In this document: in pieces, positions 41,303-41,402 of the stretch
Numbering within the stretch: position 1 is the stretch's first letter
Layout: each line of letters begins with the position of its first letter
Assembly (NCBI GenBank): GCA_963813895.1
Contig: CAWFAS010000001.1
Coordinates: forward strand, 473,290-537,289
DNA length: 64,000 nt
Source of the DNA: an uncultured Gammaproteobacteria bacterium
Lineage (GTDB): Bacteria; Pseudomonadota; Gammaproteobacteria; JAURND01
Reading direction: 5' to 3'
Notes under the pieces: generated by a model
Databases searched by the model: none
What the model saw: only the letters and a program-made list of their open reading frames with translations
What the model was told of the DNA's origin: nothing
Translations under genes and position numbers: made by a program

Positions 41303-41402
41303 TGTCATCCTGAACCTACCGAGCCGCGACCGTTAGGGAGCGTTTGCGTTGCTCCAATAAACGCTCCCTAACGGTCGCGGCTCGGTACGTTCAGGATGAC
41401 AG
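41303..41402. repeat. Family B palindromic element, full-length form, with 14-bp terminal inverted repeats CTGTCATCCTGAAC / GTTCAGGATGACAG
   Basis: The terminal repeats flank the same core arms as at 26192 (CCTACCGAGCCGCGACCGTTAGGGAGCGTTT ... AAACGCTCCCTAACGGTCGCGGCTCGGTACG). It begins 6 nt after the coaA stop. Confidence 0.8.

Follow-up and report, generated by a model that had tools for sequence, protein, structure and literature searches.

Introduction

Repetitive extragenic palindromes (REPs) that carry the tetranucleotide tag CGTC were described by Di Nocera, De Gregorio and Rocco in 2013 as four families, CGTC-1 to CGTC-4 (PMC3733652). Each unit consists of an unpaired tag, CGTC or often TGTC (or CCTC), followed by a stem of 8–9 bp that begins with AT, a loop of 4–5 nt, and a tail of 3 nt with the consensus CCA. 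The units occur mainly as head-to-head (HH) dimers with the tags on the outside, separated by spacers of 20–100 bp whose ends are frequently complementary, and they lie mostly downstream of open reading frames (ORFs). They have no associated transposase, are strikingly alike across distant phyla (they were reported from five), and are found in Coxiella burnetii (PMC3733652). Here we analyze a stretch of 64,000 nucleotides from an uncultured gammaproteobacterium (assembly GCA_963813895.1, contig CAWFAS010000001.1), which we call the window, and in particular a 14-nt repeat, CTGTCATCCTGAAC, that forms the outer ends of palindromes lying at the 3' ends of genes. An initial annotation had placed these palindromes in a family B resembling miniature transposable elements with inverted repeats (MITEs). 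We conclude, with a probability of about 0.72, that family B is instead a local population of CGTC/TGTC-tagged REPs at gene ends, and that the palindromes in which the 14-mer surrounds a different interior are composites derived from them.

The 14-mer is the head of a REP hairpin

Five exact copies of CTGTCATCCTGAAC are present in the window, whereas by our own arithmetic about 5 x 10−4 are expected by chance. Two are the ends of a palindrome at 41302, one stands alone at 49381 (Table 1), and two are the outer ends of a dimer, at 49398–49411 on the plus strand and 49479–49492 on the minus strand. When up to 3 mismatches are allowed there are 12 matches, compared with 3.7 expected, and none of 100 shuffled sequences attained 12. 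The inexact matches include a copy with 2 mismatches that faces a degenerate left copy across the palindrome at 44060, and a copy with 1 mismatch at 9064 that was absent from the initial annotation. The 14-mers are the outermost portion of long palindromes. An inverted-repeat scan of the window found near-perfect palindromes at four sites, with arms that are 93–100% complementary–47-nt arms at 41299–41345/41359–41405 (96%), 41-nt arms at 49397–49437/49453–49493 (93%), 32-nt arms at 26192–26223/26232–26263 (100%), and the arms of the palindrome at 44060 that are given in Table 1–and their folding z-scores are −11 to −17 relative to shuffled sequence.

The complete form of the repeat lies in the spacer between the convergent genes for GlmS and BamE. 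Positions 49398–49492 form an HH dimer, about 95 nt long, of two complete units that we call X, which face each other across a structured spacer; one extra head lies beside it. In the complete unit, TGTC-ATCCTGAAC-GCA-GTGAAGGAT-CTC, the 14-mer is the head of a REP hairpin, comprising the TGTC tag and the 5' half-stem. The tag of the left unit is mirrored at 49491–49488, and tags are likewise present in the heads of the palindrome at 41302 (41303–41306 and 41401–41398). The arm can fold as a single-stranded hairpin of about 27 nt, in which TGTC is followed by ATCCT-GA-AC, the loop GCA, GT-GA-AGGAT, and CTC: a 5-bp stem that starts with an A-T and a T-A pair, a tandem G.A/G.A step (the two mismatches between half-stems ATCCTGAAC and GTGAAGGAT in the left unit), two further pairs (AC/GT), and a GNA triloop. 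In single-stranded DNA, unusual stability is a known property of GNA triloops with a closing C-G pair and of tandem sheared G.A pairs in YGAR contexts, which would fit a DNA-level role of the X hairpin.

The same unit has a very wide host range. We scanned one genome per species for the dimer form, defined as two exact 14-mers in inverted orientation with 55–85 nt between them, and found this inverted pair at 57 loci belonging to about 8 phyla, compared with approximately 3 x 10−4 expected by chance. Therefore, the 14-mer is not specific to this lineage. The carriers are Bacteroidota (many Hymenobacter species and a Muribaculaceae metagenome-assembled genome, or MAG), Alphaproteobacteria (Pacificimonas, a Rhizobium MAG, and Pelagibacterales), Gammaproteobacteria including a Coxiellaceae MAG, and members of the Elusimicrobiota, Planctomycetota, Acidobacteriota, Chloroflexota, Patescibacteria and Vulcanimicrobiota. 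At nearly all of the 57 loci the head is followed by GCAGTGAAGGAYC, or by a Watson-Crick variant, TTGTTTCAGGATC, then by a variable palindromic center and the mirror image; in this TTG variant, Watson-Crick pairs take the place of the G.A step. The palindrome stops exactly at CTGTC in most copies. Those in loci L010, L030 (with a T tract) and L040 (we number loci from outside the window with the prefix L) lie within short outer hairpins, in agreement with the published observation that some CGTC dimers lie inside other palindromes (PMC3733652). Three Hymenobacter profundi loci (L009, L020 and L050) have perfect mirror flanks of 17–35 nt around X dimers located 34–49 nt from the start of a contig; these are probable assembly fold-backs and we left them out of the count of nested copies.

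Covariation supports the hairpin. In a sample independent of the 57 loci, we searched IMG/VR contigs for matches to GTCATNNNGANCNNNGNGANNNATC, in which the stem positions are free. There were 142 matches, of which 77 are complementary at all four free pairs, compared with approximately 3 expected. These 77 units use seven different triplet pairs (TCT/AGA, CCT/AGG, CCC/GGG, TCC/GGA, TTC/GAA, GCT/AGC and ACT/AGT) and three different inner pairs (GC/GC, AC/GT and CC/GG). A GNA loop is present in 64 of them (83%), and the base before GTC is mostly T, giving the tag TGTC. In IMG/VR, where we did not require the dimer form, X units are mostly singletons. HH dimers from four different contigs (L097, L198, L199 and L201) have a spacer in common, CATTGCGCCAA...GGCCATTAG, as expected of a dimer lineage that propagates in the manner of REPINs (REP doublets forming hairpins).

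Composites of X heads and an unrelated palindrome

The palindromes at 41302 and 44060 have X heads (degenerate in the second) around another palindrome, which we call Y (Table 1). Their arms keep only the 5' half-stem of X and do not form the stem of CGTC/TGTC REPs. The alignment of the two composites runs from one head to the other and takes in their loops (GCGTTGCTCCAAT at 41346–41358 in copy 1, which is non-palindromic, and ACGTTCTCAAAT in copy 2), and their flanks are unrelated. Because a non-palindromic loop is shared between unrelated flanks, one composite must be a copy of the other, with the heads forming part of the copied unit.

Y also occurs without X heads. The initial annotation had listed the repeat at five sites, and it is indeed present at three of them: 41302 (where the start had been placed one base too far to the right, at 41303), 44060 in degenerate form, and 49381. 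The other two sites, at 26192 and 51393, contain Y sequence without the 14-mer, and the single arm at the latter extends over 51383–51412. Y is built from a REP-like unit that is itself widespread. The Y core, GAGCCGCGACCGTTAGGGA, is present as inverted or tandem pairs in six unrelated high-GC contigs in IMG/VR (L066–L071), where the inverted pairs have the opposite arrangement, and GNRA-type loops. The Y unit can be written as GAGCCGCGACCG, a GNRA-like loop, and GGGAGCGG, and its plan (CCGC-GA-CC-GNRA-GG-GA-GCGG) resembles that of X, in which a stem is likewise followed by a tandem G.A step, then 2 bp, then a loop. Y may be another cross-phylum REP-like family, so far undescribed; no match among the published GTAG or CGTC families placed it. 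We rejected the possibility that Y is a GTAG-tagged REP, because only 2 of 7 arms contain CTAC, which moreover sits on the wrong hairpin side.

Head-only units recur outside dimers as tandem or mirrored stacks, both in the window (at 49381) and in four other loci (L061, L011, L014 and L051). In the Coxiellaceae MAG (L011), for example, three head-only units and three mirrored ones surround the spacers GCAGCA/TGCTGC. These arrangements suggest that whatever lies between two heads is open to replacement or nesting, and the composite and nested heads together hint that what matters is the tag plus half-stem. A further step would be to regard the 14-nt head alone as a sufficient 'end' for a cross-phylum enzyme acting on single-stranded DNA, with whatever palindrome lies between two heads being copied as cargo. 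This idea draws on the X-Y composite, on the mirrored stacks, and on the presence of the exact head in about 8 phyla; we regard it as doubtful, but if it is true it would give a handle on what mobilizes CGTC-type REPs.

Gene ends and turnover in relatives

The X and Y copies lie at gene 3' ends, within spacers that are either unidirectional or convergent, and are 1–11 nt from stop codons or overlap them. Copy 1 of the composite begins 5 nt after the TAG stop codon of a PRK-family gene (41294–41296), and beyond its right head an S1/P1 nuclease gene starts at 41430. Copy 2 begins 10 nt after the stop codon of an aldehyde dehydrogenase gene (44047–44049) and ends 1 nt from the stop codon of a minus-strand ORF (44160–44162), so that it fills the convergent spacer. 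The first head at the GlmS/BamE spacer begins 4 nt after the BamE stop codon (49374–49376), and the element ends at 49492, which is 11 nt from the GlmS stop codon (49504–49506). These distances, and the overlap with the stop codon of the Exo_endo_phos gene at 26192 (Table 1), bear out the placement of the copies at gene ends in the initial annotation.

That annotation had also suggested that the palindromes probably act as terminators, for which we find no canonical support: no X or Y copy is followed by a T tract (the bases downstream of the elements are TTCCCTCAG, ATTACCAGG and CATACCCAA), and a terminator scan of positions 38000–53000 calls none of them. In Escherichia coli, REPs transcribed as hairpins shield the upstream mRNA from 3' exonucleases, and those located less than 16 nt from a stop codon damp translation. 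By analogy, the hairpins in the window, if transcribed, would act as 3' barriers that stabilize the upstream mRNA, and the elements within 16 nt of stop codons could damp the translation of the upstream gene.

To compare orthologous spacers we used the closest relatives that we found, which have 81% and 75% GlmS identity and hence are above strain level. At the convergent GlmS/BamE spacer, where the window has an X dimer, two relatives (L061 and L062) have a dimer of an X variant, CGTCATCCCGAAC-GCA-GTGAGGGAC, together with tandem heads, and another (L065) has a palindrome of a different family, called family A. The arms of the L061 REP differ by a compensated change from AC/GT to GC/GC. The entire 332-nt spacer in L061 is X-type sequence (11880–12165; L062 7900–8050), made up of one HH dimer with 3 head-only units to its left and approximately 7 to its right, at a period of about 19–20 nt. 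At the 3' end of the PRK-family gene there is no X-Y composite in L058 or L064. After the aldehyde dehydrogenase gene, L058 carries a CGTC-1-like dimer, TGTCATTCCCGCGAAGGCGGGAACC, at the 3' end that X-Y occupies in the window. The empty or differently filled spacers indicate turnover, which is evidence against conserved immobile terminators, and they argue for repeated colonization of the same gene-end spacers, as seen between relatives and not at the level of strains.

These comparisons bear on the possibility that the palindromes are immobile, locally evolved structures, selected as bidirectional terminators or as RNA-stabilizing hairpins, which resemble each other through convergence or gene conversion. 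Such structures would be expected to be very stable hairpins and to sit close to stop codons in unidirectional and convergent spacers, as the copies here do, and an X-type element is present in the GlmS/BamE spacer of two lineages at 75% GlmS identity. However, local invention cannot explain identical 27-nt units in about 8 phyla, the non-palindromic loop that is common to both X-Y copies points to copying, the hallmarks of terminators are lacking, and orthologous spacers are empty or contain other repeat families. We therefore consider this explanation very unlikely. The initial annotation was right that the palindromes are not independently evolved terminators: they are dispersed copies of repeat families, and the X-Y copies are homologous within unrelated flanks.

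Two other kinds of sequence occupy gene-end spacers in these genomes. Family A palindromes, with the core CCTTCCCCCGCAAGCGGGGGAAGG plus GGATGAGGG or GGATGGGGG, are found in gene-end spacers other than those of X and Y, both in the window (1315–1396, 5688–5811, 29828–29993 and 42345–42486) and in the relatives (L058 2974–3098 and 17518–17689; L065 about 7865–8085, which is the GlmS/BamE spacer). In L058, the relative with 81% GlmS identity, a PDDEXK_2 gene (6320–7177; an Rpn-like nuclease or putative transposase) lies between the PRK-family and S1/P1 nuclease genes, at the exact place of the X-Y composite in the window, with no X or Y sequence flanking it.

Tests of mobility

A classical MITE is a deletion derivative of an insertion sequence (IS), in which a DDE transposase binds the terminal inverted repeats (here 14 bp), moves any interior that lies between them, and duplicates the target site. 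The initial annotation interpreted family B as a mobilizable miniature family, and pointed to target-site duplications and a cognate transposase as things to look for. We found no target-site duplication at the copies in the window or at the 57 copies elsewhere; for example, the flanks GACGAG and TTCCCT of 41302–41402, and GTGAT and CATAC of 49381–49492, contain no direct repeat. The 48 long ORFs in the window are housekeeping genes or code for eukaryote-like repeat proteins, and there is no transposase, recombinase, integrase or Y1 HUH protein among them. TBLASTN searches of the window with 13 sequences of REP-associated and terminal inverted repeat-associated tyrosine transposases (RAYTs and TIRYTs, from the supplement of PMC3733652) gave no match. 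The sole match to these proteins in 1.75 Mb of fetched loci, in L168, was discarded because the terminal repeats around it are its own and unrelated. A search of the same 1.75 Mb for genes between distant inverted X units gave nothing convincing, neither the window nor the fetched loci showed an element with a transposase between X heads, and BLAST searches of both element types against the PLSDB plasmids had no match.

The resemblance to MITEs that the initial annotation noticed is genuine in one respect, because the same 14-nt inverted ends bound two different interiors, but we find no support for classical MITE ends. The presence of the composite in two copies with unrelated flanks, and of head-only units that stand alone or sometimes in tandem, could also be read as the products of a transposase. 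Against this, apart from the lack of target-site duplications, of a transposase in the window, and of a convincing ORF bounded by X units, the supposed terminal repeat runs on into a longer palindrome and forms one half of a small covarying hairpin, and the same ends occur in about 8 phyla, unlike the terminal repeats of IS elements, which are IS-specific. We give very little credence to a classical MITE, and we regard the REP family as probably mobile, either now or formerly.

A different reading takes X as a target of recombination rather than a mobile unit–either an integron attC-like site or an attachment site for IS110/Piv-type recombinases or filamentous phages. The Neisseria repeat dRS3, a CGTC-1 family, has been reported as an attachment site of this kind, and the X heads end in ...GAAC/GTTC..., recalling the AAC/GTT of attC R boxes. 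CGTC-1 units correspond to dRS3 and REPs are known as IS targets (PMC3733652), as in the case of QMITE2 and IS1111 in Coxiella (PMC5896051). Nevertheless, this seems extremely unlikely for X. The window contains neither an integrase nor a recombinase, and the neighbors of X are not cassettes but housekeeping genes of mixed orientation whose synteny is conserved. CCTGAAC/GTTCAGG agrees with RYYYAAC/GTTRRRY at 5 of 7 positions only and is located 7 nt inward of the conserved end, and we saw no IS or prophage interrupting any X copy. We also rejected attC, CRISPR, retron msd and ribozyme readings because of context and motif. In Rfam searches of the window, only RNase P RNA passes the gathering threshold, and an E-value threshold adds only generic microRNA-hairpin noise.

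Table 1. Positions of X and Y repeat features in the window.
Feature	Position	Strand	Description
Isolated X head, 1 mismatch	9064–9077	+	CAGTCATCCTGAAC; adjoins palindrome Z; overlaps stop and last codons of ORF 9063–10271
Y palindrome alone, without X heads	26192–26263		Overlaps stop 26233–26235 of minus-strand Exo_endo_phos gene
Left head, X-Y composite copy 1	41302–41315	+	C + TGTC tag + ATCCTGAAC (X REP 5' half-stem)
Y palindrome within copy 1	41317–41387		Arms TACCGAGCCGCGACCGTTAGGGAGCGTTT (41317–41345) and complement (41359–41387)
Right head, composite copy 1	41389–41402	−	Exact mirror of left head
X-Y composite copy 2, degenerate heads	44060–44158		GCTATCCTGAGC 44060–44071; CAGTCATCCTGAGC 44145–44158 on minus strand; Y arms 44073–44102/44113–44142
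Extra head-only unit	49381–49394	+	Lies 17 nt upstream of the dimer's left head, in tandem
Left complete X REP unit	49398–49427	+	TGTC 49399–49402; ATCCTGAAC 49403–49411; GCA 49412–49414; GTGAAGGAT 49415–49423; tail CTCC
Structured spacer of HH dimer	49428–49462		ATAGGGTGGC ... GCCACCATA, 15-nt loop
Right complete X REP unit, inverted	49463–49492	−	Loop ACA
Single degenerate Y arm, without X head	51383–51412	+	CACCGAGCCGCAACCGTTACGGAGCGTTTA; between arginase-family stop (51471) and GlmS start (51333)

Other features of the window

The repeats extend into coding sequence at two places. The ORF at 9063–10271 (minus strand) ends in ...GWFRMT, which comes from the isolated X head, and the Exo_endo_phos ORF at 26233–27018 (minus strand) ends within the right arm of Y. 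The C-termini of both ORFs are likely to be repeat-derived extensions, and annotators of such genomes should be aware that short C-terminal extensions at these places are encoded by repeats. The isolated head adjoins palindrome Z (8978–9066), which has 38-nt arms, AAGTGGGGTCAAGTCTGGTTTTGTGCTCTCGA..., and no second copy in the window.

Two further inverted repeats, with 39-nt arms that are 113 nt apart (56875–57065) and 26-nt arms that are 14 nt apart (57178–57243), lie between genes for a DUF945 protein and arginyl-tRNA synthetase. A bacterial class A RNase P RNA gene is located at 834–1218 (345 bits), immediately before the family A palindrome at 1315. The region 11228–16720 has low GC content (0.37, compared with about 0.45) and codes for a 1335-residue protein with ankyrin repeats and a Sel1-repeat protein whose internal tandem repeats are 108 nt long. 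Eukaryote-like proteins with ankyrin and Sel1 repeats are typical of intracellular bacteria resembling Legionellales or Coxiellales, which suggests that the host may have an intracellular lifestyle.

Proposed origin

We propose that the basic X unit is a tagged hairpin, two of which, inverted with their tags outward, would have made the HH dimer now seen at 49398–49492. The composites at 41302 and 44060 would have arisen when the 3' half-stems and spacer of such a dimer were replaced by a dimer of the unrelated, REP-like Y unit, after which the X-Y composite was apparently copied at least once as a unit. The units are presumably non-autonomous and may be copied or moved as folded single-stranded DNA, which would leave no target duplication. 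A trans-acting enzyme would then recognize the foot of the hairpin together with the tag, for which a RAYT-like transposase of the HUH/Y1 type offers the best analogy, and the units would lodge and persist at gene 3' ends and in convergent spacers. Genomes in which several palindrome families contest the gene-end spacers, such as this one, are good ground in which to seek the enzyme of the CGTC REPs.

Comparison with known repeat families

X agrees with the CGTC REPs in most aspects of its anatomy. Its tag is TGTC in the window and CGTC in the relative L061. Its stem, which is 8–9 bp long and starts with A-T and T-A pairs, is present at 49403–49423 and in the inverted unit. In the window it forms an HH dimer whose spacer is structured, as it does in the 57 dimers elsewhere (which were found by a scan for that form), and its copies in the window are at the 3' ends of genes with no dedicated transposase seen. 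CGTC REPs can also be recognized by the peptides that they encode–VIPAKAGI and DSRLRGND for CGTC-1, RHSELVSGS for CGTC-2, VIPGLDPGI for CGTC-3, and VIPVLDTGI for CGTC-4 (PMC3733652, Additional file 3)–and the CGTC-2 peptide corresponds to the CTGTCATCCTGAAC-TTGTTTCAGGATC form (...CTTGTTTCAGGATC), which has the X head. A literature search with raw 12-mers returned only unrelated primer matches. X differs from the described families in having the tandem G.A/G.A step and the GNA triloop. Neither the head-only X-Y composite nor the tandem head-only units are in PMC3733652, and about six of the phyla in our scan (Elusimicrobiota, Planctomycetota, Acidobacteriota, Chloroflexota, Patescibacteria and Vulcanimicrobiota) are additional to those reported there.

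Several observations weigh against assigning X to the CGTC REPs. By nearest-neighbor energy, a single X arm does no better than shuffled sequence, so the small hairpin is supported by covariation only. The tail is CTC instead of CCA, and the loop is the 3-nt GCA if the stem is taken as 9 bp, or the 5-nt CGCAG if it is taken as 8 bp. The CGTC-2-like assignment, made from the published description and the encoded peptides, is provisional. The arms of the composites at 41302 and 44060 are not REP hairpins, because the 3' half-stem is missing from them. Head-only palindromes also seem to be rare: no other example turned up in IMG/VR (our scan there included interiors of 1–30 nt), the HH dimers found there all have complete arms, and a scan of Joint Genome Institute (JGI) metagenomes for the X-Y junction gave 3 matches, none of which is a true composite. 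Finally, we found no mobilizing enzyme for CGTC-type REPs in the window and, to our knowledge, none has been identified in the literature for any member of the CGTC superfamily.

Other well-described repeats resemble X less closely. REPINs (Bertels and Rainey 2011; reviewed in PMC6006769) are likewise intergenic hairpins of about 100 nt that replicate as a unit of two inverted REPs plus a spacer and make no target-site duplication, and the dimer at 49398–49492 is the equivalent structure. However, in the canonical REPIN/RAYT system the REPs have a 5' GT[AG]G tag and flank a RAYT gene, whereas the tag in the window is TGTC and we found no such gene in the window or next to X units, and a REPIN family is usually confined to one genus whereas X occurs across phyla. 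QMITE2 of Coxiella burnetii (Wachter et al. 2018, PMC5896051), from a related host lineage, similarly has a REP-type core that occurs either alone or inside an extra inverted pair, is located at gene 3' ends, and has relatives in other bacterial classes. As judged by its description, it differs in having a GTAG core, direct repeats of 7–11 nt in its full-length form, and a role as the target of IS1111, whereas X is tagged with TGTC, lacks direct repeats, and contained no IS insertion that we could see. Within the CGTC superfamily itself, Neisseria dRS3 and Rickettsia RPE-6 and RPE-4 (Rickettsia palindromic elements) are named members, belonging to CGTC-1 and CGTC-4 (PMC3733652). They differ from the copies in the window in their stem and loop sequences, and RPEs are often in-frame within genes whereas the window copies touch only the last codons of two ORFs. 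Classical MITEs such as Correia/NEMIS and Nezha are, like X, small, non-coding, multicopy, intergenic elements with inverted ends that form a stable hairpin when transcribed, but they have target-site duplications and the terminal repeats of a parent IS, neither of which we found for X.

The putative new family is thus not a new kind of MITE but a part of a REP superfamily that is described but unexplained. To what was known of that superfamily, the present analysis adds a structural definition, backed by covariation, of one very widespread unit, and a wider host range for it, in which near-identical 27-mers extend to about 8 phyla including candidate phyla. It also adds the head-only composite and the nested arrays of heads, which suggest that the interior between two heads is exchangeable.

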